Source of the DNA: an uncultured Chloroflexia bacterium
GTDB lineage: Bacteria > Chloroflexota > Limnocylindria > Limnocylindrales > CSP1-4
Reading direction: 5' to 3'
Assembly (NCBI GenBank): GCA_963809595.1
Contig: CAWEKG010000003.1
Location: 291,749 to 355,748, forward strand
DNA length: 64,000 nucleotides
Shown: positions 8,054 through 64,000 of the stretch, piece after piece
How the letters are laid out: the number at the start of each line of letters is the position of its first letter
Numbering within the stretch: position 1 is the stretch's first letter
Notes under the pieces: generated by a model
The model's input: only the letters and a program-made list of their open reading frames with translations
Databases searched by the model: none
Told to the model about the DNA's origin: nothing
Translations under genes and position numbers: made by a program

Positions 8054-9833
8054 GTGGTGTCTCGGCGACGTCTCACGCGCTCGATCCTGGTCTCGATGGC
8101 GGTCTCGGCGCTCCTCGGGAGCCAGATCGCCGCCCTGCCCGTCGCGGCCGCCGGTCCGCGGCACCCGAACGTCCACGGTCGCTACATCGTGGTGGCCAAG
8201 AGCCACGCCGACTTCGCCTCGGCGCGGCGGGCCGCCATCCGCGCCGGCGCGACGATCATCGACGAGATGCCCGCCACGGACACGCTGGTCGTGTCCGGCT
8301 CCGTTGCGACCCACGCGACCATCGCGACCGACAGCTCGGTCCAGGCCGTCGCGCTCGACCACCTCGAGCGGGTCGTCCCGCCCGAGTCGGTCGGGGTCAG
8401 CTCGTTCCACGCCCCGAAGGGTCATAGCGGCGCGCCCGGTAACTCCAAGGTCAAGCCCGACCCGGCGTTCTCGCTCAAGGGCCTGATGTGGGACTTCGGC
8501 CGGATCGGCGCCCAGGACGCCTGGAAGTCGACCCTCGGTCGGTCGTCCGTCCTCGTCGGCGTCGCCGACACGGGTCTCGACTTCACCCACTCGGAGCTCG
8601 CCTCGAAGGTCGTCCACGTCGAGGACTTCACGACGACCGAGGATCCGCCGCTGTGCAAGACCTACTTCGACTACAGCGATGCCGACGCGTCCGCTGAGTT
8701 CGGCGGCCCGGCGAACACCGACTGGAACGGCCACGGCTCGTGGATCGGCGGGAACATCGCCGGGGCCCTCGACGGGGTCGGGATCAACGGGATCGCCCCG
8801 AAGGTCGGGCTCGTCGCGCTCAAGATCGCCCAGTGGTGCGGCTACGCCTACGACTCGACGATCCTCGCCTCGTTCCAGTACGCCGCCGACCACGGGATCA
8901 ACGTCGTCTCGATCTCCTTCGGCGGGTACCTCGACCGGTCGGATCCCGACCAGGAGACGATCTACCAGCAGTACGTGAAGACGGTGGCCTACGCCCGCTC
9001 CAAGGGCACGGTGATCGCAGCCGCGGCCGGCAACGAGCACGTCCGGGTCGGGGCCGGTGGCCGCGTCCTGAGCCACGGCATCCTGTGGATCCCCGGTGAT
9101 GTGCCCGATCCGGTCTCGAACCCGATCGACTACTACGGCCTGTACGAGGTCCCCGGCGGCGTCCCGGGTGTCGTCGACGTCTCGGCGACCGGCAATGTGG
9201 TGGTCGGCAAGTCGGCATCGTGCCCGACCGGGACGTGGGAGACGAGCGACGCGACCTGCAAGCCAGCCTCCGATGCGCATCAGCCGTCGGGCGTGGGTCG
9301 CAAGAACCAGCTCACCTACTACAGCAACTACGGGCCCCGGATCGACGTCGCCGCCCCCGGCGGCGCACGCAAGTTCAACCTGCCGAACGCGGATCGGGGC
9401 GGCACCGGTGGCTTCCCCTACACCGATGCCGACGGGACGACCGCCTACGAGGACTTCGGCATCACCTCGAACTGGGCTCTCCAGATCCCGTGCTGGGTGA
9501 ACCTGGGTCCGCAGTTCTACCCGGACGAGTGCTACTCGAACATCCAGGGCACGTCGATGGCCGCGCCTCACGCCTCGGCCGTCCTGGCCCTGATCGCCAG
9601 CGCTCACCCCGCCCTGGCCCACAGCCCGAGTGCGCTCGTCTGGCTGCTCAAGGCGTCGGCCGACGACATCTCGGGCAACACCACCCGGGCGCTCAGCGCG
9701 ACCGACACGTCGCCCGGCGACCGGACCGGGATCGCCTGCCCGACCGGCTACTGCCACCTCGGCGGTGCCGCCGATCTCGGATCACGAAGCCTACGGGGCC
9801 GGGCTGGTCGACGCCGGAGCCGGCGTCCGCTAG
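8054..9833 (+). CDS. secreted subtilisin-like serine peptidase (S8 family), with a frame disruption near the C-terminus
   Basis: Strong RBS AGGAGGAGGA followed by GTG. It has a signal peptide and the catalytic triad motifs VADTGLD (Asp), HGSWIGG (His) and GTSMAAPH (Ser). The conserved S8 C-terminus ...HEAYGAGLVDAGAGVR* is encoded from 9783 to 9833, one frame off from the body; the shift lies near 9765-9782. Confidence 0.8.
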
Positions 9834-9855
9834 CCCTCCCCTCGTCGCACGCAGT

Positions 9856-9885
9856 GAGAGAGCCGGCCGACAGGCCGGCTCTCTC
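9856..9885. terminator. bidirectional intrinsic-terminator-like hairpin between convergent genes
   Basis: Perfect 13-bp stem GAGAGAGCCGGCC / GGCCGGCTCTCTC with the 4-nt loop GACA. It lies between the protease stop (9833) and the corrinoid-protein stop (9925). The U-tract is weak, as is common at high GC. Confidence 0.55.
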
Positions 9886-9924
9886 GTTCGAGACGACCCG
9901 TCCGGATCGCCCGCTCCGTCGCGG

Positions 9925-10572
9925 TCAGGCTCCCAGGAGCGTCCGGGCGATGTTCACCGCCCCGACCGCGTCCTCGCCGAACCCGTCGGCCCCGATCTCG
10001 TCGGCCCAGGCCGCCGTGACCGGGGCGCCGCCCACGATGACCTTCACGTCGTCGCGGAGGCCGGCCTCGGCGAGTGCGTGGATCACGGCCCGCTGGCCGA
10101 CCATCGTGGTCGTCAGCAGGGCGGAGACGCCGACCACGTTGGCGCCGACCTCGCGGACCTTCTCGACGAAGCGCTCGGGTGCGACGTCGACCCCGAGGTC
10201 GTGGACCTCGAAGCCGTTGGCCGTGAGCATCATCCCGACGAGGTTCTTGCCGATCTCGTGGATGTCGCCCTTGGCGGTGCCGATGACGACCCGGCCGACG
10301 ACCTGGCGGCGGGATGCCCGGGCGAGCATCTCCGGCTCGAGGACCCCGATCGCGGTCTGCATCGCTCGGGCGCCGGCCATCATGTCGGGCAGGAACATCA
10401 CCCCGCAGCGGAAGTCCTCGCCGACCTGGTGGATCCCCGGCACGTACCCCTCATCGATGGCCACGAGCGGGTCGACCCCGTCGGCCAGGGCCTCCCGGGC
10501 CAGCTCGGCGGCCTCGTCAGGATCGCCGTCGATGATGCTCTGGCGCATCGCCGCGAACAGGTCTTCGTTCAT
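9925..10572 (-). CDS. cobalamin-binding corrinoid protein (MtbC/MttC/MtgC-like)
   Basis: N-terminal helical B12-binding cap plus a Rossmann B12-binding domain. The DxHxxG motif is present (GDIHEIGKNLVG). Good RBS CAGGAGG before the ATG at 10572. Length ~215 aa. Confidence 0.85.
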   Translation of the reverse strand: MNEDLFAAMRQSIIDGDPDEAAELAREALADGVDPLVAIDEGYVPGIHQVGEDFRCGVMFLPDMMAGARAMQTAIGVLEPEMLARASRRQVVGRVVIGTAKGDIHEIGKNLVGMMLTANGFEVHDLGVDVAPERFVEKVREVGANVVGVSALLTTTMVGQRAVIHALAEAGLRDDVKVIVGGAPVTAAWADEIGADGFGEDAVGAVNIARTLLGA

Positions 10573-41556: not shown

Positions 41557-41631
41557 TGGAGCCGACACTCGGATTTGAACCGAGGACCTGCTGTTTACGA
41601 AACAGCTGCTCTACCGCTGAGCTATGTCGGC
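41557..41631 (-). tRNA. tRNA-Thr (anticodon CGU), with encoded CCA
   Basis: Folds into a cloverleaf: acceptor GCCGACA/TGTCGGC, D-arm GCTC-AGCGGTA-GAGC, anticodon arm GCTGT-TTCGTAA-ACAGC, T-arm CTCGG-TTCAAAT-CCGAG, discriminator T, then CCA. Confidence 0.9.
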
Positions 41632-51660: not shown

Positions 51661-52956
51661 TCAGTGGGCCCCGGCGAGCTCCCAGCTCGAGCCGTCGGGA
51701 CCGTCGCGGACCTCGACGCCGGCGGCGGTCAGACGCTCCCGGATGAGATCTGCGGTCGCCCAGTCCTGCGTGTCGCGGGCGCGCGTCCGGAGCGCAAGCA
51801 GGGCGTCGACGAAGGGCTCGATGGTCGATCGCGGGTCCGCCCCGAGACCCGCCGCCTCGCCGAGTCGGGCGATCAGCGACCGGAAGGTGGCCCGGGCGTT
51901 GTCGAGATCCGGGCTGTCCTCGCCGGCCCGGAGCCTGGCTTCGATCGCCGAGTCGAGATCGAGGAGGGCCGCCACAGCGGCCCGGCGATCCCGCTGACCG
52001 AGGGCCGCGACGAAGGCGCCCTCGAGCGTGGCCATCTCGTCGCGCAGCGGCTCGGCCGACGGTGACGACCGTCCACCGCCGAGCGCCCCGGACGATCCGC
52101 CGCCCCCGATCGGCCGGGACTCCCAGGCGAGGTCGACGGCCTCCCCGGTCGCCAGGTCACGGGCGACCTCGGAGATCGTCTCGAAGGCGACCTCGCTCCC
52201 CCTGAGGAGGACCGCGCTCCGCCCGTCGACCCGGACCGTCACGTCGCCGAGACCCGAGATCGAAGCCGTCCGCCGGTCCAGGTCCAGGACGAGCGCCGTG
52301 TGGCTGTCGACGCCGAGGATGAACGTGCCCGGGGGCAGCTGGCCCTCCAGCGTCCGGAGCCGGCGCTCGCCCATGTAGCAGAAGCGGGTGTCGTGGTTGC
52401 CGCCCTCGGCGTTGTCGTAGTGGGGGACCACAGCCGCCTGGAGCCCGGTCGCCGGCCCGAGCAGGTCGAGCCCGGGCAGCCAGCAGGGGTCGGCTCCGAC
52501 CTTGTAGATCTCATAGACCGGGATCGTGACCGTCCCCAGGGTGAGGGCGGCGGCGCTGGCCATCGTCAGGATCCCGCCATCGCGCAGGCCGTCGGCGAGC
52601 GCGACCGGTATCGGGCCGTCGGCCCACTGGCGCAGGGCGTAGCTGGGGCTGCCCGGCCCGGCCATGAGGTAGCGCGCCTCGCGTATCCGGGCGACGGCGG
52701 TGGCGAGGGTGACCGCGTCGACCTCCCGCGACCGGTACGAGGCGACCGCCACCTCCCGGCCGATGCTCTCGCGGAAGAAGCTCACCGTCCGGGCGCTCAG
52801 CTCGTCAGCGTTCTCCTGGAAGCCGTAGGGGGTGTCGATGATGGCGGCGGTGGCGGGCTCGGCGCCGAACCGCTCGAACAGGGCGCGGTGAACCTTGGCC
52901 ATCGTCGGCGCGATCTCGCCGGAGCCCATGATCGCGAGGATGCGCGGGCCGCTCAT
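51661..52956 (-). CDS. two-domain protein: N-terminal class-I glutamine-amidotransferase/peptidase-S51-like domain plus a C-terminal helical domain resembling the CysRS/MshC C-terminus
   Basis: The start ATG overlaps the stop of the upstream hydrolase (ATGA). The N-terminus reads MSGPRILAIMGSGEIAP.... The C-terminus (...TQDWATADLIRERLTAAGVEVRDGPDGSSWEL) matches the conserved C-terminal motif of cysteinyl-tRNA synthetase/MshC. Confidence 0.5.
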   Translation of the reverse strand: MSGPRILAIMGSGEIAPTMAKVHRALFERFGAEPATAAIIDTPYGFQENADELSARTVSFFRESIGREVAVASYRSREVDAVTLATAVARIREARYLMAGPGSPSYALRQWADGPIPVALADGLRDGGILTMASAAALTLGTVTIPVYEIYKVGADPCWLPGLDLLGPATGLQAAVVPHYDNAEGGNHDTRFCYMGERRLRTLEGQLPPGTFILGVDSHTALVLDLDRRTASISGLGDVTVRVDGRSAVLLRGSEVAFETISEVARDLATGEAVDLAWESRPIGGGGSSGALGGGRSSPSAEPLRDEMATLEGAFVAALGQRDRRAAVAALLDLDSAIEARLRAGEDSPDLDNARATFRSLIARLGEAAGLGADPRSTIEPFVDALLALRTRARDTQDWATADLIRERLTAAGVEVRDGPDGSSWELAGAH

Positions 52957-53885
52957 CCGGGGGATCCGCTCGCGGCAGGTCCCGAGGCCGATCCCGGGGG
53001 TCCGCCGGCCGCGACGAAGCCGTCGAAGACGCCGGCCGCGAAGTCGTGCATGGCGCCGGAGAGCGCGTCGGGGTGCTGGGCGTGGATGTCGTGGTCGCCG
53101 GCGAACCAGCGGACGTGGGCGTCCGGGATCGCCGCCGCGGCCGCTTCGATGGCGTGCCGCTTCCGCCCGGTCCGGTCCGGGTCGCCGCCGTCGGCGGGCG
53201 CCAGCATGACGGGCACGGTGATCTCGGGGTAGCGCCGGCTGGGATGGTGCTCCCACAGACCGCGCAGGACAGTCAGGTGGTGCTCGTACGTGAGCCATGG
53301 GGCGATCCTGCCGTCGGGCCGGACCTCGAAGTTCGCCAGCGTCCCGCGGATCCCGCTCTCGGGCCAGTCGTGGTGGGCCGAGCGGATGTAGCCCTCGATC
53401 TCCTCGAACCGGCGCCCGGCCAGCCGGGGTGGCGCGAGGGCGGCCAGGCAGGCGTCCCAGTCGGCGAACTCGCGGCTCGGTTCGAGCCAGCCGCCATCCA
53501 CGCAGACGATCCCCCGGACGCGACCGGGGTGACGGGCCGCCAGCTCGAGGACCACGTTGCCGCCCCAGGACTGGCCGGCCGCGATCGGTCGGTCGAGCCC
53601 CAGGCGATCGATCAGGGTCGCCAGGTCGTCGGCCACCGTCGGGACATGGTACGGACCGTCCGGCTTCGAGGACCGCCCGTGCCCGCGGAGATCCACCGTG
53701 AAGACCCGATGGCCGTTGGCGACGAGACCGGCCGCAACCCCGTCCCACGTACGGGCGTTCGAGGCCAGGCCGTGGACCAGCAGGAAGGGCGTGACGACGG
53801 TGCCGTCCGGCCCGGCGTGGTCGTCCGGCCCGACGGCATCATCCCGCGCGCCGACGTCCCACGCATCGACCACGAGGTCGACACC
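52953..53885 (-). CDS. alpha/beta-fold hydrolase
   Basis: Nucleophile elbow GQSWGG and an HG oxyanion motif (LLVHGLASN). The start is uncertain (ORF open to 54089). Confidence 0.7.
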   Translation of the reverse strand, partial: GVDLVVDAWDVGARDDAVGPDDHAGPDGTVVTPFLLVHGLASNARTWDGVAAGLVANGHRVFTVDLRGHGRSSKPDGPYHVPTVADDLATLIDRLGLDRPIAAGQSWGGNVVLELAARHPGRVRGIVCVDGGWLEPSREFADWDACLAALAPPRLAGRRFEEIEGYIRSAHHDWPESGIRGTLANFEVRPDGRIAPWLTYEHHLTVLRGLWEHHPSRRYPEITVPVMLAPADGGDPDRTGRKRHAIEAAAAAIPDAHVRWFAGDHDIHAQHPDALSGAMHDFAAGVFDGFVAAGGPPGSASGPAASGSPG

Positions 53886-54198
53886 GTCGGCCACCTGGAT
53901 CCGCTCGGTCCGCATCCACCGGATGGTAGCGGGCGCGTCGACCTCGACCTCGGCCCTGGCCGCCGTTCCACCTCGGCGTCCGGCTTCGGCCGACTCTCTA
54001 CCTCGACCACCCGTACGCGATGAAATGGATGCATCAAGGAGCGCCGCTGTGGGAACGGGTTCACCACCTCTCCGATCGAGGCGATGCATCCAATGGCATC
54101 ACGGGTCGATGGGTCCGGGCGCCGGCGACCCAGGCGGATCACGGGACGGGGCAGACGCGGGACGAAGGGGGAGGTCGAGGCCGCACTCGGGCCCGAGC

Positions 54199-56214
54199 TC
54201 AGGCCGGTGCGATCCCCAGGGCGCGGGCGATGACGGCCCCGGTGCCGAGGGCCAGGACGAGGGTCGCCCCGGCCATCCCGAGCGCCGGCCGCCAACCGAA
54301 CTCGTCGGCCAGGGTGGCCAGCGTCGCGGCGCACGGCACCGAGATCGAGACGACGATGGCGAAGACGAACAGCTGGGCCGACGACATGAAGCCGCCCAGG
54401 GTCGCCGCGCCGGCGCCGTACTGGACGATCGCCAGGGCGAGGAGGAGCTGGAGGGCCAGCTCCTTGCGCAGGAAGGCGAAGACGATGGCGACCCCGGCGA
54501 TGGCCGGCAGCCCGAGCAGGGTCTCGGTGATCGGGCCCAGGATCGAGGCGAGGGGGACCCACAGCCCCGACTCGTAGATGAGGCCGAGCACGAACGACCC
54601 GACCAGCATGATCGGGGTGGCCATGACCACGAACGAGCGGAACCGCGACCAGGCCTTGGCCCAGACATGCCGGACGACGGGCCGGCGGAGGGGAGCGAGC
54701 TCGAGGACCAGGGCGGGCTGTCGTCCCGGCACCACCGCGTTCGCGGCCAGGCTTGCGGCGAAGGTGATCAGGGCGACGACGCCGAACGCGGCCAGGGCGA
54801 CGAGCGGTCCGGCGAACGGGGCGAGAGCCGCGATCACGACCGCGGTCCGCGCCGAGCAGGGCGTCAGCGTGACCAGGAAGGCACCCAGGAGGCGCTCCCG
54901 GTGGGTGGCCAGGATCCGCGTCCCGTAGATCCCCGGCACGTTGCAGCCGGCTGCGGTGAGCAGGGGCACGGCGGTCCGGCCGGGCAGGCCCAGGACGTTG
55001 AAGACGCGATCCATCAGGACGGCCGCGCTGGTCAGGTAGCCAGAATCCTCGAGGCCGGCCACCAGGACATAGAACGTGAGGACGTAGGGGACGCCGATCG
55101 TCAGCATCGCCAGGAGCCCGCCGTCGACGGCCCACAGGATCGCGGTCGCCAGGGCCGGGAAGGGGACGATCGTCGTCACCAGCGTCGTCATCGCCGGGGA
55201 GACGGTCGCGCTCCAGAAGGAGGCCAGGACCCCGGACAGGAACCCGCCGACCACGACCATCGTGGCGAACAGGCCGAGCGTGACGCCGACGAACAGGGGC
55301 AGCCCCGGGAACGGCGAGGTGGCCAGCCTGGCGAGGCGGTCGGCCGTGGTGGCCGACGTGGTCCGGCGTCGCTCCACCTGCCCCGCCCACGCCGCGGCGA
55401 CCTGCCACAGGACCGGCTCGACCACGTCGGAGAGCCGGAGGGTCGCGGCGCCCCGGACCGAGACCGCGCCGCCGGTCACCGCCGCGAGGAGGCCGTCCGG
55501 GTCGTAGACGGCGGCGCCGAGGGAGTTCGACGAGCGGATCGTGCCGGCCTCGCCCTGGATCGCCCGCTCCACCTGGAACGGGAAGATGCCCGCCGGAGCC
55601 GTGGCGTGCGGTGACCGTCGTCCGTCGCCGACCTCGAGCCGCTGCCAGGCCAGGGCCACCGCATCGGCCATCGCCGCGTCCACGCCCCGGCCCGTCCGAC
55701 CGGTCGTCCGGTGGACCGGCGCGACGAGGAGCTGGGAGAGGCGGCCCGCGTCGATCTCGACGCCGTGGCCCGTCGCCTCATCGGTGAGGTTCGCGGCGAG
55801 GACGACCGGCAGACCCAGCTCCCGACAGGCGAGCACGAGCGGCAGGTGCCGGCCCAGGTCGCCGCTGTCGGCGACGACGAGGATCGAATCTGGCGCTTGG
55901 TCCAGCAGCAGCCGCCAGAACGGATCTTCGCCGGCCGGCCGATCGGTCAGCGAGCGGGTCCCGGGCAGGTCGACGAGCCAGGCCCCCCTGCCCCCGGCCA
56001 CGATGCGGCGACGCTCGACGTAGACCGTGGTCCCCGGCGTGTTCGAGGTCTCGACGAAGCGGTGGCTGGCCCGCGCGAGGAAGGTGGACTTGCCGACGTT
56101 CGGCCGGCCGACCAGGGCGACGGTGGGCAGTCGCTCATCGCCGAACGCAGGGCTCGCCGTGCCGTCCCGGTCGTCGGTCTCGCGTGTCGCGGTACGTCGG
56201 TGTCGGCCGATCAT
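54199..56214 (-). CDS. feoB: ferrous iron transport protein B
   Basis: N-terminal GTPase (GRPNVGKSTFL G1, DLPGT G3) followed by a polytopic Gate-type membrane domain. Length 671 aa. Confidence 0.9.
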   Translation of the reverse strand: MIGRHRRTATRETDDRDGTASPAFGDERLPTVALVGRPNVGKSTFLARASHRFVETSNTPGTTVYVERRRIVAGGRGAWLVDLPGTRSLTDRPAGEDPFWRLLLDQAPDSILVVADSGDLGRHLPLVLACRELGLPVVLAANLTDEATGHGVEIDAGRLSQLLVAPVHRTTGRTGRGVDAAMADAVALAWQRLEVGDGRRSPHATAPAGIFPFQVERAIQGEAGTIRSSNSLGAAVYDPDGLLAAVTGGAVSVRGAATLRLSDVVEPVLWQVAAAWAGQVERRRTTSATTADRLARLATSPFPGLPLFVGVTLGLFATMVVVGGFLSGVLASFWSATVSPAMTTLVTTIVPFPALATAILWAVDGGLLAMLTIGVPYVLTFYVLVAGLEDSGYLTSAAVLMDRVFNVLGLPGRTAVPLLTAAGCNVPGIYGTRILATHRERLLGAFLVTLTPCSARTAVVIAALAPFAGPLVALAAFGVVALITFAASLAANAVVPGRQPALVLELAPLRRPVVRHVWAKAWSRFRSFVVMATPIMLVGSFVLGLIYESGLWVPLASILGPITETLLGLPAIAGVAIVFAFLRKELALQLLLALAIVQYGAGAATLGGFMSSAQLFVFAIVVSISVPCAATLATLADEFGWRPALGMAGATLVLALGTGAVIARALGIAPA

Positions 56215-57924
56215 CGGACGGCCACGGGTCGATCCGCGGCGGCCGCGGCTCGCTCGCCGGGGTGCATCTCGACCGTCCCGGCCACCGACCGGGCGAGGGC
56301 TACCCGGGCCCGTCCGACGTCGAGCACGAGGGGACCGCCGAACGGGGCCGCCGCGGCGACCGACAGGTCGGCCCCGGGCTGGATCCCTTCGTGGGCGAGC
56401 TCGGCCCGATGCGTCGGGCCGACGCTCGCGACCCGGCCGCCGTCTCCCGGGGCGAGACGGTCGAGCGGGACGGTGGGCGCAGACGCAGACGCGGGCTGTC
56501 GGCCGCCGGACGACCCGCCGCCGGCCGGCGCGCTCTCAGCCGCCTCGCCGGCCAGCAGTGCCCCCACGGTCGACGCGGCCGCCCGGCCCTGCCCGATGCA
56601 GTCCGGCAATCCGACGCCCCGGTACGGAGCCCCGGCGAGCACGAGCCCGGGCAGGTCGGCGAGCGCCTCGAATACGGCCTCGACGCGGTCCAGGTGTCCG
56701 ACCGTGTAGTGCGGCATCTGGCCGTCCCAGCGGGCGACCCGCCGGAGGATCGGGCGGCCGTGCGCCCCGAGGGTCGTCGCGATGTCCCGCTCGGCGGCGG
56801 CCAGGAGCTCCTCGTCGCTGCCGGCCAGGATCCCCGGCCGCCGCGACCCGATGAAGCAGCGCAGGAGGATCGTCCCGTCCGGCGCGCGCCCGGCCCACTT
56901 CCGGGAGCTGAACGTGCAGGCGTCGATGGCCAGCGGCTCGCCCGCCGCGACGAGGAAGCCGTGCCCGGTCGGCGGCTCCGCGAAGGCGTCGAGCGGATAG
57001 GCCAGGGTGACGACGGCCGTGCTGCCGTGGGGGATCGTCCGGATCCGTTCGGCCGCGACCGGGACGAGACCCTCGAGCAGCTCCGCGGCAGCCGGACCGG
57101 AGGTCGCCAGGACCACCGCGTCGAAGTGCGTGGTCGGCTCGTCGCCCAGGCGGGTGTCGTACCCGCCTGTGGTCCGCCGGATCGGCCCGACCGAGGTGGC
57201 CGTCCGGACCGTGACATCCGTCATCGCGCTTATCGACTCGGCGAGCGCGTCGGTGAGCTGACCCGTCCCACCGGCCAGGGTCACGAACGGCGAGCCGCCC
57301 GGCTGCCCCTTCCGGGCGCGTCCCGAGGCCAGGCTGGCCAGGAGGAGGCTGCGGTGCTCGCGCTCGGCCTCGCGGAGCTGGGGGACCACGGCCAGCAGGC
57401 TCAGCTCGTCGACCGGCGTCCCGTAGACGCCGCCGATGAGCGGTCCCGCCAGCCGCTCCACGAGGGCGCCGCCGAGCCGCCGGCGGAGGAACGTGCCCAC
57501 GGCGACGTCGCTCGTCCAGTCCGTCGCGGGGGAGGACGAGGTCGAGCCCCATCCGGAGCTTCTCGAAGGGCGAGAAGAGGTCGCTCGTGACGAACGGGCG
57601 CATCCGGGTCGGCAGGACGAGGCCCATCCCGTCGGGCAGTCGGCGGAAGCGGCCGCCGCTCCGGATGTGGACCGTCCGGGGCTCGGTCGGCCGGATGATC
57701 GCCTCGCCGAGGCCGAGCTCGCGGGCCAGCTCGAGGGCCGCCGGCCGGTAGCTGATGAACGAGTCCGGTCCCGACTCGATGAGGAAGCCGTCCTGTCGCT
57801 CCGTGCCGACCTTGCCGCCCAGCCGGGCGCTCGCCTCGGCGAGGACGACCGGGATCCCGGCCCGACCCAGCGCGTAGGCCGCGGTCAGGCCGGTGATCCC
57901 ACCGCCGACGACGAGGACGGACAT
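56214..57924 (-). CDS. hemY: protoporphyrinogen/coproporphyrinogen III oxidase (HemY/CgoX) fused in frame, via a Gly/Ser linker, to a C-terminal FeoA domain; one frame disruption near 57500-57520
   Basis: N-terminal FAD motif (VLVVGGGITGLTAAYAL) in the frame of ORF 56536..58041. The rest of HemY (LIGGVYG..., WDGQMPHYTVGHLDRV, LAGAPYRGVGLPDCI) is in the frame of ORF 56211..57500. It continues without a stop through APAGGGSSGGRQPASASAPT into an FeoA-like SH3 domain (VPLDRLAPGDGGRVASVG...EMHPGE). Its stop overlaps the feoB ATG. Confidence 0.65.
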
Positions 57925-57935
57925 CGCCGCGACAC

Positions 57936-59133
57936 TCAGACGGCCGGGACGGCGGTCGTCGGCGGCACGTACGGGCAGAGCGGATCGGTCTCGAGCGGGT
58001 CGCCGGTCCAGGCGAAGGCGCGGGCCCGCGAGCCGCCGCACAGGCGGGCGTACTCGCAGCGGCCGCAGCGGCCCTTGTAGGTGGTCACGTCGCGCAGGCT
58101 GGTGAAGACCGGGTGGCTCCGGTAGAGCTCCACGATGTCGTCCTGCCGGACGTTGCCGACGACGAGGGGCAGGAAGCCGGACGGATAGACGTTCCCGTCA
58201 TGCGACGACGAACATGATCCCGTTGCCGTCGCGGACGCCGAAGCCGCGACCGACCGGGGTCGCCGCGATCGCCGCGTCGTCGAGGCCCTCCTCGTGCATC
58301 CGGCGGATGGCGATCCGGCGGTAGTGGGTGGCCTCGGTCGTCTTGATCGCGAACGGCGACGTCTTCGAGAGCTCGTAGAGCCAGCCGTTCAGCCGCTCGG
58401 AATCGGCCGGGCCGATCTCCCGGAGGCTCGTCCCGCGGCCGACCGAGATGAGGTAGAAGAGGCTCCAGCGGATGATCCCGAGGCGCTTCATGAGCTCGTA
58501 GGTCGCCGGCAGGTCGGACAGCGTCTCGTCGGTGACCAGGGTGTTGATCTGGAGCGGGAGACCCACCTCGTGGGCCCAGCCGGCGGCCCGTACGGTCAGG
58601 TCGAAGGTGCCCGGGACGCCCCGGAACCCGTCGTGACGCTGGGCGTCGGAGCCGTCGATGCTCAGCGACATCGTCTGGATCCCGGCCGCCTTCAGGGCGT
58701 AGAGCCGCTCGATGGTCATGTCGGGGGTCGCGGCCGGGGCGAGCGAGGCGCCGATCCCGCGCTCGGTCGCGGCGGTCACGAGCGTCTCGAGGTCGGGCCG
58801 GCGGAGCGGGTCGCCGCCGGTGAAGACGACGTGGGGGTACGGCTGGCCGAACCCGGTGACCCGGTCGAGCAGGGCGAAGCCCTCCTCGGTCGTCAGCTCG
58901 CGCGGGTCGCGCTCGGGCATCGCCGTGGCCCGGCAGTGCTTGCACGCGAGGCCGCACGAGAGGGTCGTCTCCCAGTAGACGAGCATCGGCGCCCGGCCGA
59001 AGACGTAGCCCTCGGGCCGGACCGCGCCGACCGCGGTCGGATGGCCGCCGGGATGGCCGCCGGGGTGGCCGCCGGGATGCCCCGGCCGCTCGACGACCGG
59101 CTCGACGATCGGTTCGCTGATCAGCTGGCTCAT
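57936..59133 (-). CDS. radical SAM/SPASM-domain protein (AhbD-like candidate), with one frame disruption near 58140-58200
   Basis: CxxxCxxC (CGLACKHC) radical-SAM core in the frame of ORF 58198..59133. The C-terminal Cys-rich SPASM/twitch region (CGRCEYARLCGG...CPY) is in the frame of ORF 57936..58133. The N-terminus carries an (HPGG)4 repeat. Confidence 0.65.
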
Positions 59134-59157: not shown

Positions 59158-60099
59158 TCAGGCGAGACCGACCGGGGCGTGGGACGCCGGGACCAGGGAC
59201 TCGACCGCGAGGTCGGCCAGCCCGGCGATGAAGGTGGGGTCGTCGTTCATCGAGCGGGCCCGCTCGAGGCGGATCCCCACCTCGGACGCGACGGCCTGCG
59301 CCTCGATGTCGATGTCGTAGAGGACCTCGAGGTGATCGGCCACGAAGCCGACCGGGCGGACCACGAGCCCGCGGACCCGGCTTGTCGCCAGCCGTCGGAT
59401 CTCGGCCAGGATGTCCGGCCCGAGCCACGGCTCGCCGGTCCGGCCGGCGCTCTGGTAGGCGAAGTCGTAGCCGGTCAGGCCGAGCCGCTCGGCGACGAGG
59501 GCGGCCGTGGCCGCCAGCTGGTCGGGGTACGGATCGCCCTCGGCCACGACCCGTGCCGGCAGGCTGTGGGCGGTGAACATCACCCGCACCTCGTTCGGGT
59601 CCGCGAACCGGCCGATCGCCTCGCGGGTCGTCTCGGCCAGCGCCTCGATGAACCGGGGCTGGTCGTGCCAGGAGTCGACGAAGATGACCGCGGGCGCCGA
59701 CTCGCCGAGCCCGGCCAGGGCGCCGTCCACGGCCCGCCGGTAGCCGGCCGCGTTCGAGGACGCCTGGGGGGCGAGGGCGATCGCCACGAACCGGCGCACA
59801 CCGTCGGCCGCCATCCCCTCGACGATCCGACCGATCCGCGGCTCGATGTGGCGCATCCCGGCGTAGACCCGGACCGGGTGACCGCGGGCGGCCAGCTCGA
59901 GCTCGAGGGCTGCCCGCTGGGCCTCGACGATCCGCGACAGGGGCGACCCGCCGCCGATCGCCCGGTAGCGCTCGAGGAGCTCGTCGAGGAGCTCCGGCGA
60001 GGGCGGGCTGCCCCGGCGGATGTCGGTGTAGTAGGCCTCGACCTGGTCGAGCCGATCGGGGCTCCCGTAGGCCATGAGCAGGACGGCGTCGGCGCTCAC
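59158..60099 (-). CDS. hemH: ferrochelatase (coproporphyrin ferrochelatase type)
   Basis: RBS AAGGAG then GTG. The GTG overlaps the hemE stop (GTGA). Ferrochelatase motifs are present (LLMAYGSP, FTAHSLP). Confidence 0.85.
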   Translation of the reverse strand: MSADAVLLMAYGSPDRLDQVEAYYTDIRRGSPPSPELLDELLERYRAIGGGSPLSRIVEAQRAALELELAARGHPVRVYAGMRHIEPRIGRIVEGMAADGVRRFVAIALAPQASSNAAGYRRAVDGALAGLGESAPAVIFVDSWHDQPRFIEALAETTREAIGRFADPNEVRVMFTAHSLPARVVAEGDPYPDQLAATAALVAERLGLTGYDFAYQSAGRTGEPWLGPDILAEIRRLATSRVRGLVVRPVGFVADHLEVLYDIDIEAQAVASEVGIRLERARSMNDDPTFIAGLADLAVESLVPASHAPVGLA

Positions 60100-61146
60100 T
60101 GCGCGCTCCTTCGGCTGGTCCGCTCGTGGACGAGGTCGACGAGACGGCGGAGGTCGTCGGGATCGGTCTCGGGCAGGACGCCGTGACCGAGGTTGAAGAC
60201 GTGGCCCGGGCGACCGCCGGCCTGGTCCAGGATCCAGTCCGCGGCGTCGGCGACCGCCTCGAACGGGCCGAGGAGGAGAGCCGGGTCGAGGTTCCCCTGG
60301 ACGGCCCGGTCGCCGACCAGCTCCCAGCCGTCGTCCAGGGCGATCCGCCAGTCGAGCCCGATCACGTCGCCGCCCGCCTCGGCCTGCCGGGAGAGCAGGC
60401 CGGCGGTCCCGATGCCGAAATGGGTCCGCGGGACGCCGAGGGGGGCGAGGCCGTCGAACAAGCGGCGCATCCAGGGCCCGACGTGGAGGTCGTAGTCGCG
60501 TGGCCCGAGACCGCCGACCCACGAGTCGAAGACCTGGACCGCCTGGGCCCCGGCCGCCACCTGCGCGCCGAGGTAGGCGATCGTCGTCTCGACGAGACGC
60601 TCCATGAGCGTCGCCCAGGCCGTCGGCTCGGCGTGCATGAAGGCGCGGGTCCGCAGGAACTCGCGCGACGGGCCGCCCTCGATGAGGTAGCAGGCGAGGG
60701 TGAACGGCGCCCCGGCGAAGCCGATGAGCGGGACCGGCGAGGCCGCCCGGATGAGCCGGATCGCCTCGAGGAGGGGACCGACCGCGGCCTCCGGATCGAA
60801 CGCCCGGAGCCGGGCCACGTCGGCGGCCGTCCGGATCGGCGTCTCGATGACCGGCCCGACGCCCGGCCTGATGTCGAAGGCGACGCCGAGCCCGGTGAAC
60901 GGCGTCGTGATGTCGGCGAAGAGGATCGCCGCGTCCACGCCGAGCCGGCGGACCGGCTGGAGGGTGACCTCGGCGCAGAGGGCCGGATCCCGGGTGATCT
61001 CGATGAGCGAGGCGCGCTCCCGGACGGCCCGGAACTCGGGCAGCGAGCGGCCGGCCTGGCGCATGAACCAGACCGGGGTCGCGTCGACCGGCTCGCGCCG
61101 GCAGGCGCGCAGGTAGCGCTCGGCCCGCGGATCGACGGCGGGGCAC
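60096..61146 (-). CDS. hemE: uroporphyrinogen decarboxylase; the N-terminus reads through without a canonical start in the current frame
   Basis: PVWFMRQAGR, ITRDPALCAEVTLQP and LIGFAGAPFTLACYLIEGG are classic URO-D motifs. In frame there is no ATG/GTG/TTG between the hemL stop (61188) and ...RYLRACRREPVDATPVW. Removing one C from the CCCC run at 61140-61143 gives a GTG start (V-PAVDPRAERYLRAC...). Confidence 0.8.
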
Positions 61147-61187
61147 GCCGGAGCCCGGACCCGAGGCGGCGAGGACCGGCGACCCGG

Positions 61188-62478
61188 TCACGAGCGGAAG
61201 GCCGCCCGGGCGGCCTCGATCGTCTCGGCCACCACCTCCGGCGCCGTGGGCCAGGGAGATGAACCAGGCCTCGAACTGGGACGGCGGGAGGAGGACGCCG
61301 GCATCGAGCATCGCCCCGAAGAACCGGGCGAAGGCGTCTCGATCGGACTCGCCGGCCTCGGCGTAGTCGCGCGGGGCCGCCGCCCGGAAGAAGACCGTCA
61401 GCAGGGCTCCCACCCGGCCGATCGAGATGCTCGCCCCGGCCGCCGCGGCCGCGTCCCGCAGACCGCTCTCGAGGGCCGCCCCGGTCGCCTCCAGCTCGAC
61501 GTAGCGGTCGGGTCCCAGGTGGCGCAGCGTGGCGACCCCGGCGGCCATCGTCAGGGGATGCCCGGAGAGGGTCCCGGCCTGGTAGACCGGACCGGCCGGG
61601 GCGACCAGGTCCATGATGTCGCGGCGGCCGCCGTAGGCGCCGACCGGCAGACCGCCGCCGATGATCTTGCCCAGGACCGTCAGGTCCGGGCGCATCCCGT
61701 AGCGCGCCTGGGCGCCGCCGTGGGCGACCCGGAAGCCGGTGATGACCTCGTCGAAGATGAGCAGGGCGCCATCGGCGGTGGTGACCTCGCGGAGCCCCTC
61801 GAGGAAGCCCGGGGCGGGCGGCACGACCCCGACGTTGGCGGCGACCGGCTCGACGATGATCGCGGCGATCCGGCCGGGGTGCCGCTCGAACGCCTCGCGG
61901 ACGGCGGCCAGGTCGTTGTAGGGCACGACGACCGTGGCCTCGGCGATGCTGGCCGGGACGCCGGCGCTGCCCGGGATGGCCAGCGTGGCGATGCCCGAGC
62001 CGGCCTCCACGAGGAGGCCGTCGGAGTGGCCGTGGTAGCCGCCGGCGAACTTCAGGACGAGGTCGCGGCCGGTGGCGCCGCGGGCGAGCCGGAGCGCGCT
62101 CATCGCGGCCTCGGTGCCCGAGGAGGTGAAGCGGAGTCGCTCCATCGAGGGGAGGGCTGACCGGATCGCCTCGCCCAGCTCGATCTCGCGGGGCGAGGTC
62201 GCCCCGAGGGCGAAGCCGTCGAGGGCCGCCGCCCGGACCGCCTCCACGACGTCCGGATGGGCGTGACCGAGGATCGCCGGCCCCCAGGCGCCGATGTAGT
62301 CGAGGTACCAGCGGCCGTCCGCGTCGCGGACGCGCGGTCCCTCGCCGGCGTCCAGGATGAGCGGCGGTCGGCCGACCGACCGGAAGGCCCGGACCGGGCT
62401 GTTGACGCCGCCCGGGAAGAGGTCCTCGGCTCGCCGGATGAGCTCGGCCTGGCGGGTCTCGATCGTCGTCTCCATCAA
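61188..62478 (-). CDS. hemL: glutamate-1-semialdehyde 2,1-aminomutase, with one frame disruption near 61240
   Basis: TTG/ATG start. GSA-AT motifs are present ([17 protein letters not shown], a PLP Lys region [16 protein letters not shown]). The body is in one frame to ...FISLAHG. The conserved C-terminus [17 protein letters not shown] is in the adjacent frame, with its stop at 61188. Confidence 0.85.
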
Positions 62479-63464
62479 TCGTTCCCTTCGCGGAGCCAGG
62501 CCGCCAGGTCCGCGGCCGCGTAGGTGATCACGAACGTCGCCCCGGCCCGGACGATCGAGGTCGCGGCCTCGAGGTGGGTCCGCCGCCGGTCGATCCAGCC
62601 GAGACGGGCGGCCGCCTCGATCTGGGCGTACTCGCCGCTGACCTGGTAGGCGCCGATCGGGACCTCGAACCGCTCGCGGGCGGCGGCGAGGATGTCGAGC
62701 GAGGGCATCGCCGGCTTGACCAGGAGCATGTCGGCGCCCTCGTCGAGGTCGACCGCCATCTCGCGCATCGCCTCGCGTCGGTTGGCCGGGTCCATCTGGT
62801 AGCCCCGTCGGTCACCGAACGCGGGAGCCGAGTCGGCGGCCTCGCGGAAGGGCCCGTAGAACGCCGAGGCGGTCTTGGCGGCGTAGGCCAGGATCGGGGT
62901 CTCGCTGAAGCCGGCATCGTCGAGACCGGCCCGGATCGCGGCGACCTGGCCGTCCATCATCGCGCTGGGGGCGACGACGTCGGCGCCGGCCCGGGCCTGC
63001 GACGCGGCGGTCTCGGCCAGCCGGGCGATCGCCTCGTCGTTGAGGACGCTGCCCCCGGCGTCCACCGGCCCGCAGTGACCGTGGTCGGTGTACTCGCACA
63101 GGCAGGTGTCGGCGATGAGGACCAGGTCCAGTCCCGCGTCGCGGATCCGGCCGAGCGTCTCCTGGACGATCCCGTCCTCGATCCAGGCGCCGGTCCCGAT
63201 CGGGTCCTTGGCGGCCGGCAGGCCGAACAGGATGACCGCACCGACGTCGAGAGCCGCCAGACGGCGTGACTCGACGACGGCCTCGTCCGGGCTGAGCCGG
63301 GAGACGCCGGGCAGCGACGAGATCGGCGAGCGGGTCGCCCGTCCGGGCTGGACGAAGAGCGGGGCGACGAGCTGGCGGGGGTGGAGACGGGTCTCGCGGA
63401 CCAGCGCCCGGAGCGGGGCGGTCCGGCGCAGGCGCCGAAGGCGGTGGCCGGGGTCGGGGGTCAC
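62475..63464 (-). CDS. hemB: porphobilinogen synthase (delta-aminolevulinate dehydratase)
   Basis: 329 aa with the active-site Lys region (...[12 protein letters not shown]..., [11 protein letters not shown]) and a Zn/Cys-type motif ([14 protein letters not shown]). Confidence 0.9.
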
Positions 63465-63489: not shown

Positions 63490-64000
63490 TCATCGGGTCA
63501 CCTCGACGGTGGCGGGGGTCTCGGTCAGCTCGGCGACGATCCCGGCGGCGAGCGCCTCGGCCGATCGACCGGCTGCCTCGCGGACCCGGCCGAAGCCGTG
63601 CTCGCGGGCGACCGTGGCGGTGGCCGGGCCGATGCACCAGGCGGTCGACCGGAGGGCGACCCGGCGGTCCTGGGGCGTGAGCACGGCGAGCAGGCCCCGG
63701 ACCGTGGAGCCGCTGGTGAAGACGACGGCGTCGAACGGGCCCTCGGCGAACGCGGCGGCCAGCGGCGCCCGGGAGTCGGCCGGGCCCTCGACCGTCCGGT
63801 AGGCGACCACCTCGTCGACGATCGCGCCGCGGGCGAGCAGCCGCGTCGGCAGGATCCCGTCGGCGATGTCCGCCCGGGCGAGGAGGACGCGCTCGCCGGG
63901 TCGGATCGGGAGCTCCTCGGCGATGCCTTCGCCGTCGTTCTCGGACGGCACGAAGGCGACCTTGACGCCGCCGGCCGCGAGGACCGCAGCCGTCGCCGGC
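63490..64000 (-). CDS. hemD: uroporphyrinogen-III synthase (partial, runs off the window end)
   Basis: HemD-like C-terminal half (...[14 protein letters not shown]...). The ORF stays open to the window edge. Upstream of hemB as in hemCDB clusters. Confidence 0.7.

Follow-up and report, generated by a model that had tools for sequence, protein, structure and literature searches.

The 64-kb stretch of DNA analysed here (64,000 nucleotides of contig CAWEKG010000003.1 from an uncultured Chloroflexia bacterium, hereafter the window) holds a heme biosynthesis operon in which the oxidase gene hemY runs on, through a short linker, into an FeoA domain and is followed directly by feoB, the gene for a ferrous-iron transporter. 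This fusion, hemY::feoA, is genuine and is conserved in the Chloroflexota class Limnocylindria. Overall, we believe that it probably represents a lineage-conserved HemY(CgoX)–linker–FeoA protein whose tail acts as the FeoA partner of FeoB, and that a one-base frameshift interrupting hemY in the window is an error of the consensus sequence. At the same time, the gene as deposited encodes no full-length HemY–FeoA in the window.

All heme and feo genes of the window lie on the minus strand. The open reading frame (ORF) that carries the junction (56211..57500, 429 amino acids) contains both a Pfam Amino_oxidase match (residues 4–312, E = 2.8e-27) and an FeoA match (residues 344–411), the latter scoring 41.8 bits within the ORF and, when the 89-residue piece is taken by itself, 45.8 bits (cutoff 23). 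Between the two stands a 20-residue linker rich in Ala, Gly, Pro and Ser (APAGGGSSGGRQPASASAPT, 56472..56531), through which the frame passes without a stop and without an in-frame ATG, GTG or TTG; the first valine of the FeoA domain is a GTC codon. The domain, together with an 18-residue C-terminal tail, occupies 56214..56471 (Pfam match 56268–56471), and direct reading of the sequence places its TGA stop (56211–56213) across the ATG of feoB (56214–56212), in a stop-start ATGA at 56211..56214. A first-pass annotation had described the junction in just these terms, with hemY continuing in frame, no start codon for a stand-alone feoA and ATGA coupling to feoB, and had proposed domain searches as a check; the Pfam result and the recurrence of the junction in relatives agree with that description. 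No in-frame start codon was found in the linker just upstream of FeoA at any of five loci inspected, and there is no second FeoA in the window, where the HemY tail is the sole one. By phmmer the closest solved relative of the domain is the FeoA protein 3E19 (E = 1.9e-8), and its best matches among solved structures are genuine FeoA proteins rather than repressors. What we see is not a free FeoA of some 75–85 amino acids with its own start codon, since the ORF is continuous with HemY, nor is it a fusion of the Feo(AB) type, since the TGA stop parts the FeoA domain from an FeoB that has its own ATG or GTG.

The same architecture recurs in relatives. A search with the 429-residue ORF returned dozens of intact proteins of 552–598 amino acids that carry both PF01593 and PF04023; the named ones are entered as 'protoporphyrinogen oxidase' of Candidatus Limnocylindrales, Limnocylindria or Chloroflexota, and a hidden Markov model of the FeoA part matches 47 of the 120 best homologue clusters. 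(Searching 50%-identity cluster representatives added no information: fused and unfused HemY share clusters, and the matches were mostly fragments.) Exact-sequence look-ups with this ORF and with the window FeoB matched no record, and the assignment to Limnocylindria comes from the NCBI names and the taxonomy of homologues. In independent assemblies, ten more loci with the fusion (L001, L002, L003, L008, L090, L101, L102, L103, L112 and L114) each present one ORF of 548–581 amino acids that runs from a GGGITGL motif through a PDC motif into FeoA, with feoB directly after it. The search for other HemY–FeoA architectures that the first-pass annotation had suggested is thus answered by an intact fusion at ten independent loci. 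With the window included, feoB lies immediately downstream at 11 of 11 fused loci, and the 4-nt ATGA/GTGA overlap marks the junction at eight of them. Where the flanking sequence suffices to read the full operon (L001–L003), the order is hemA, hemCD (fused), hemB, hemL, hemE, hemH, a radical S-adenosylmethionine (rSAM) gene, hemY::feoA and feoB; we read hemY::feoA, the last gene but one, as translationally coupled to feoB.

The co-occurrence of FeoA with feoB is strict, and the two are lost jointly. In the window, feoB (54199..56214) encodes a 671-residue transporter with a complete domain set, FeoB_N (E = 6.3e-30), two Gate domains and FeoB_C all exceeding their Pfam cutoffs, and it is 85% identical over 668 amino acids to its L001 counterpart (tblastn). 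Among unfused relatives with enough downstream sequence to judge, whose HemY is 461–482 amino acids long and ends normally, no feoB follows hemY in L004/L005, L006, L009–L011 and several of L091–L113. Four loci record joint decay or absence: in L007 (11414–12011) FeoA is internally deleted and residues 566–669 of FeoB, its last 104, remain; the contig that encodes P0004 (JGI 3300075153) has a split FeoA and no feoB; in L088 (5035–5473) FeoA is kept and FeoB is reduced to residues 27–60, about 34 residues; and L089 (10900–11500) has neither. No locus among those compared has gone back to a stand-alone feoA and still kept feoB. In other lineages (Actinomycetota, Bacillota, Acidobacteriota and other Chloroflexota, for example), no FeoA or FeoB relative lies within 6 kb of HemY at any of 76 control loci among the matches listed, the other four of the 80 loci listed being close relatives.

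HemY and FeoA have also been inherited together. Across 36 full-length fused proteins the pairwise identities of the HemY part correlate with those of the FeoA part (r = 0.79), and the two halves therefore share a history, with mean pairwise identities of 0.66 for HemY and 0.53 for FeoA. In a neighbour-joining tree of 94 HemY domains, the fused forms fall into several deep clades, and the tree requires at least ten changes of state, a count in which some 'unfused' entries may be truncated gene calls. Because the identities correlate and decay intermediates exist, the simplest reading of these sequences is a single old ancestral fusion followed by repeated loss.

The oxidase half is a recognizable HemY. 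The intact homologue P0005 scores 230.4 bits on TIGR00562 (cutoff 97.85), and the pieces of hemY in the window cover positions 1–119 and 140–442 of the Amino_oxidase profile, with the GGGITG motif for binding flavin adenine dinucleotide (FAD) in the N-terminal part. Its closest solved sequence relative is Bacillus subtilis HemY (3I6D), at 260 bits as against 180 for the PgoX of Myxococcus. HemQ (ChdC), recognized as Chlor_dismutase, is encoded in or beside the operon of relatives; its position varies: in the unfused L004/L005 (4782–5471) the gene stands within the operon and separates hemB from hemL, and in the fused L003 (1–378) it lies divergently upstream. Neither the window nor the parts of L001 and L002 that were examined yielded a HemQ. 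The rSAM gene between hemH and hemY is kept in every Limnocylindria heme operon seen, including those that bear hemQ. On TIGR04053 (cutoff 395) its L001 orthologue (8790–9989) reaches 455.6 bits; the next-best match is the heme synthase AhbD, TIGR04545, at 299 bits, below the cutoff of 500. AhbD is an oxygen-independent alternative to ChdC in some organisms that use the coproporphyrin-dependent pathway (PMC13564367), and by its sequence the rSAM protein may be an oxygen-independent coproheme decarboxylase or may catalyze another anaerobic step. Given that B. subtilis HemY is the closest relative, that HemQ occurs in related operons and that the rSAM protein is AhbD-like, context makes CgoX, the coproporphyrinogen oxidase of the coproporphyrin-dependent heme pathway, the most likely identity of the HemY part.

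An AlphaFold2 model of P0005, computed with a 36-sequence alignment, gives a picture of the FeoA part as a domain tethered to HemY by a disordered linker. The HemY body (residues 1–460) is predicted with confidence, the linker (461–482) has a predicted local distance difference test (pLDDT) value of about 30, and residues 485–560, at a pLDDT of 85–90, are modelled as a small beta-rich domain of five strands and short helices. Foldseek aligns only about 470 columns of the model with the CgoX and PgoX structures 9A78_B (CgoX), 2IVD and 3I6D at template modelling scores of 0.88–0.90. In the 36 fused homologues the linker is 14–39 amino acids long and rich in A, G, P, S and T, and its sequence is not conserved. 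The protein has the fold, FAD motif, TIGR00562 membership and heme-operon setting of B. subtilis HemY/CgoX (3I6D) and Myxococcus xanthus PgoX (2IVD), and differs from both in an extra linker of 14–39 residues and an FeoA domain of about 75.

FeoA is required together with FeoB and stabilizes GTP-bound NFeoB (PMC8749426), and in the Bacteroides fragilis fusion FeoA is likewise reported to stabilize GTP-bound FeoB (PMC8980893). By extension, the FeoA tail on HemY would be the FeoA partner that FeoB needs, binding the G-domain of FeoB on the cytoplasmic side in the way that free FeoA, or FeoA fused to FeoB, does in other systems. FeoB activity and HemY would then be made together and in proportion, with transporter activity scaling with the heme enzyme, on which, if the tail does bind FeoB, that activity would depend. 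HemY, and possibly ferrochelatase through HemY, would be held at the membrane site where Fe2+ enters. Going by the gene arrangement, the role of the tethered FeoA is most likely to couple Fe2+ import to coproporphyrin-dependent heme synthesis. In a further step, HemH may join the assembly and iron may be channelled into coproporphyrin; a metabolon of this kind, with FeoA docking HemY (CgoX) and the coproporphyrin ferrochelatase on the cytoplasmic face of FeoB and Fe2+ handed to the porphyrin there, is a tentative idea that we consider possible and would not press. Physical channelling of iron is something that we infer only, by analogy. In the first-pass annotation the fusion was said to couple Fe2+ import physically to the end of heme synthesis at which iron is inserted, which goes too far for a conclusion drawn from a gene fusion. 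It is HemH, not HemY, that inserts iron, and channelling would therefore also require contact between HemY and HemH.

Several observations pull against a functional coupling through FeoA. HemY itself uses no iron, and for channelling one would sooner expect HemH to be the fused enzyme. Many lineages have lost the fusion, as the changes of state in the tree indicate, and it is hence dispensable. The window FeoB reaches 288.8 bits on the NCBIfam equivalog TIGR00437, a near miss below the cutoff of 315.65. The AlphaFold2 model, the kind of structure prediction that the first-pass annotation had looked to, supports an FeoA domain tethered through a low-pLDDT linker and carries no inter-domain confidence on which a docking of FeoA on HemY could be based. 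The fusion may also persist simply as a harmless one, thanks to its flexible linker.

That last thought leads to the main rival explanation, namely that a stop between hemY and feoA was lost, the halves work independently and nothing but equal expression was gained. We hold this to be a serious possibility and still a rather unlikely one. Its appeal lies in the long, variable and disordered linker, in the repeated loss, in the nature of HemY as an enzyme that does not use iron, and in the weaker conservation of FeoA relative to HemY. It sits less easily with the fact that at least 11 loci, at protein identities as low as about 51%, retain the fusion, with the placement of feo genes within the heme operon in this lineage only (none of the 76 HemY loci from other lineages among the matches listed has them), and with the lack, among the loci compared, of any in which a separate feoA was regained beside feoB.

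A second question is whether the frameshift in the window is real. The first-pass annotation had taken 56214–57924 as a single frame. That span is 1711 nt long and is not one open frame; a +1 frameshift near 57510 had been overlooked. Three-frame translation and the DNA place one extra base at 57510 (ambiguous within about 57510–57513), in the context 'gac gag C gac gtc', or 'GAG[C]GAC'. The N-terminal 138 codons (57511..57924, beginning MSVLVVGGGITG and ending LVLPRDGLDE), which carry the Pfam Amino_oxidase and NAD_binding_8 matches, do not share a frame with the remainder (57509..56214), which begins DVAVGTFLRRRLG and comprises the C-terminal two thirds of the CgoX/PgoX-type oxidase (56532..57509, by Pfam and tblastn), in frame with the linker and FeoA. 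The homologues run through the site unbroken (...LVLPRDGLDRD[IV]AVGTFLRRRLG), and the window therefore carries one extra base there. A tblastn search with proteins of the related operon reproduces the split: the N-terminal part is 89.8% identical to L001 residues 1–137, and the C-terminal part aligns with residues 132–558 of the L001 HemY::FeoA. The public gene call for the contig is a truncated 429-residue protein (P0001).

We regard this frameshift, and with it the one-base indels in hemL and the rSAM gene, as most likely consensus indel errors from long reads rather than biology, because codon-position statistics show purifying selection. Between the window and L088 (90.6% DNA identity), and with each gene part counted in its own frame, 64–67% of the mismatches fall at codon position 3 in the N-terminal part of hemY, in its C-terminal part and in FeoA, and 59% do so in hemH. 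Both parts of hemY are thus under purifying selection, and an old pseudogene, for which about 33% would be expected, is ruled out. Spacing across the site is in frame in 26 of 26 metagenome contigs found by an anchored pattern scan, and also in L001, L002, L003 and L008. Two more genes in the window are affected: in hemL, a +1 near 61242 puts the last 18 codons and the stop (61188–61190) out of frame, with the expected C-terminus in another frame, and in the rSAM gene the tblastn alignment splits across two frames at residue 302/303, and at about 58184 the window has CC against CCC in L088. Three heme genes (hemY, hemL and rSAM) thus carry one-base indels within 9 kb. The window, L088 and L089 contigs all have names of the form 'contig_N' and belong to one ENA series, ERZ25039xxx, whose contigs are rich in indels (L007 and L088, for example) and whose assemblies we infer to be long-read.

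The same comparison supplies what speaks against an error. L088 (3990–4000) has an extra base at the very same codon boundary ('CGG[G]GAC'), and in L089 (10010–10020) the extra base comes 16 nt downstream of that point ('GGGA[A]CC'), in a heme operon that is otherwise intact by gene lengths. Three contigs, then, each have a +1 within about 20 nt in hemY, and such clustering is rare for independent random errors. Our preferred guess is a systematic base-calling hot spot; that the recurrent insertions within 20 nt in three related genomes mark a real recoding or switching site is less likely. A genuine frameshift, whether a recent inactivation in this organism or a gene recoded by +1 frameshifting, would account for the shared location and, if recoded, for the purifying selection on both hemY parts. 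We nonetheless think it improbable: all three contigs come from the one indel-rich series, the window has two other one-base indels in hemL and rSAM, the three insertions are of different bases at different positions, with no slippery motif in common, and the metagenome contigs and the four related loci are in frame. The window sequence is error-prone, and since one-base indels are present in three of its heme genes, ORF-level features read from a single contig of such an assembly need to be compared with relatives. A frame scan of the whole window by G+C content at third codon positions was too crude to tell gene boundaries from frameshifts.

The remaining alternatives concern the tail itself. 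PF04023, which we take to cover also the SH3-like C-terminal domains of iron-dependent (DtxR-family) repressors, would admit a regulatory module of HemY that senses iron or binds a partner and tunes porphyrin output, and the enzyme that bears the domain at its C-terminus does make a product that has to match the iron supply. Yet it strictly co-occurs with feoB and decays when feoB is lost, its closest solved relatives are true FeoA proteins, and FeoB has no other FeoA in the window, all of which makes a regulatory role very unlikely. Equally hard to credit is the release of FeoA as a separate protein, with the fusion existing at the gene level only. An exposed, disordered linker makes cleavage conceivable, but its sequence is not conserved and hence offers no common cleavage motif, and we reject non-canonical internal initiation because start codons are absent from the linker just upstream of FeoA at the five loci. 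That the fusion itself is an assembly artefact, an indel hiding the hemY stop, can safely be dismissed despite the indel errors in the window and a stop at about 56538 in one alternative frame, because ten independent loci, among them the NCBI metagenome-assembled genomes GCA_936414885.1, GCA_040752335.1 and JANMQO01 as well as JGI metagenomes, show the same continuous ORF.

The heme operon of the window was mapped by tblastn with the proteins of the related operon L001, and its gene order, hem(C)D-hemB-hemL-hemE-hemH-rSAM-hemY::feoA-feoB, bears out the setting that the first-pass annotation had described. Upstream of hemY::feoA, and all on the minus strand, are the radical SAM/SPASM gene of the TIGR04053 family, AhbD-like (57936..59133, with its 1-nt deletion at about 58184–58206); hemH, encoding ferrochelatase (59158..60099; residues 1–313, 84.7% identity; the L001 orthologue passes TIGR00109); hemE, uroporphyrinogen decarboxylase (60096..61196, start approximate; residues 8–365, 87.5% identity); hemL, glutamate-1-semialdehyde aminomutase (61188..62478; the alignment ends at residue 411 of 429, at the frameshift); hemB, 5-aminolevulinate dehydratase (62475..63464; residues 9–338, 90.9% identity); and, cut by the window end, the 3' HemD part of a fused hemC-hemD (63490..64000; residues 405–572 of the L001 HemCD). 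In the relatives hemC and hemD likewise form a single gene with Porphobil_deam and HEM4 domains, 568–606 amino acids long (L001 2696–4414, L002 2570–4330, L003 2573–4393). An ORF of 1106 amino acids in the mechanical ORF list (59158–62478, minus strand) is not a gene: it runs through hemL, crosses hemE out of frame and continues into hemH, whose frame is by chance that of hemL, and it stays open because stops are rare at 74% G+C and the hemL stop was lost to the frameshift.

Directly downstream of feoB, an ORF at 52953–54089 (minus strand) looks, by its sequence, like an alpha/beta-hydrolase. In L002 that position is taken by an Abhydrolase_1 gene, and on the P0004 contig such a gene is found a short way downstream; this shared neighbour is of use in locating where the feo insertion ended ancestrally. 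A gene for a GerE-type regulator is present in the downstream region of both L088 and L089. An Rfam scan of the window returned a single transfer RNA (41560–41631, minus strand) and nothing relevant to the hem/feo locus. Between about 37000 and 52000 the third-position G+C signal is much weaker than elsewhere in the window, and this region may be non-coding, foreign or more error-rich.

Set beside known systems, the fusion combines familiar parts in a new way. Canonical stand-alone FeoA (PF04023; 3E19, 2GCX, 6E55) belongs to the same family, and the tail shares with it a predicted small beta-rich domain and a position directly upstream of feoB; the canonical form, however, is a free protein of 75–85 amino acids, whereas here the domain has no start codon of its own and a 460-residue enzyme at its N-terminus. 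Feo(AB) fusions such as that of B. fragilis (PMC8749426, PMC8980893) have their SH3-like FeoA domain covalently attached to a protein of the same operon, as the FeoA domain is here, and likewise no separate feoA, but there FeoA sits at the N-terminus of FeoB, and here it sits at the C-terminus of the preceding heme flavoenzyme, with FeoB beyond a stop-start overlap. The HemH–HemQ (CpfC–ChdC) fusion of Cutibacterium acnes is also a natural fusion in the coproporphyrin pathway; it revealed a functional partnership and helped to identify HemQ (PMC13564367). That fusion joins two consecutive enzymes of the pathway, whereas HemY–FeoA joins a pathway enzyme to the accessory protein of a metal transporter. 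Full-text searches returned no title or abstract suggesting a HemY–FeoA or CgoX–FeoA fusion, and at that level they agree with the remark in the first-pass annotation that none has been described; a heme-biosynthesis review of 2026 that covers the HemH–HemQ fusion and protein-protein interactions never mentions Feo (PMC13564367). What is new, then, is an FeoA domain with a new partner and a HemY with a new accessory domain, in an architecture that was already visible in public protein sets.

The closest functional analogy for channelling is found in mitochondria. Chen and colleagues are said to have described, in 2010, a complex of ferrochelatase with mitoferrin-1 and Abcb10. A mitochondrial heme metabolism complex has been defined that consists minimally of ferrochelatase, PPOX and ALAS2 (PMC4545792). 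In these assemblies the enzymes that complete heme synthesis, among them PPOX, the homologue of HemY, are joined with an iron importer; at the same time, they are built from unrelated proteins and an unrelated transporter, are non-covalent and transient, and have experimental support, whereas the bacterial case is known from gene architecture alone.

To our knowledge, how a bacterial ferrochelatase obtains Fe2+ without the damage caused by free iron is still poorly understood, and the fusion offers a direct handle on the supply of iron to heme synthesis. Its conservation turns a link between the Feo importer and heme synthesis into a concrete, testable hypothesis. For the FeoA–FeoB interaction, itself poorly understood, the fusion is a natural construct for pull-downs and structures, and for annotation it calls for a correction of the fused proteins that are now labelled merely 'protoporphyrinogen oxidase'. 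If the tentative idea of docking and channelling is true, the Limnocylindria would possess a bacterial metabolon of iron importer and heme synthesis, revealed by a covalent fusion and analogous to the assembly of mitoferrin, ferrochelatase and PPOX.

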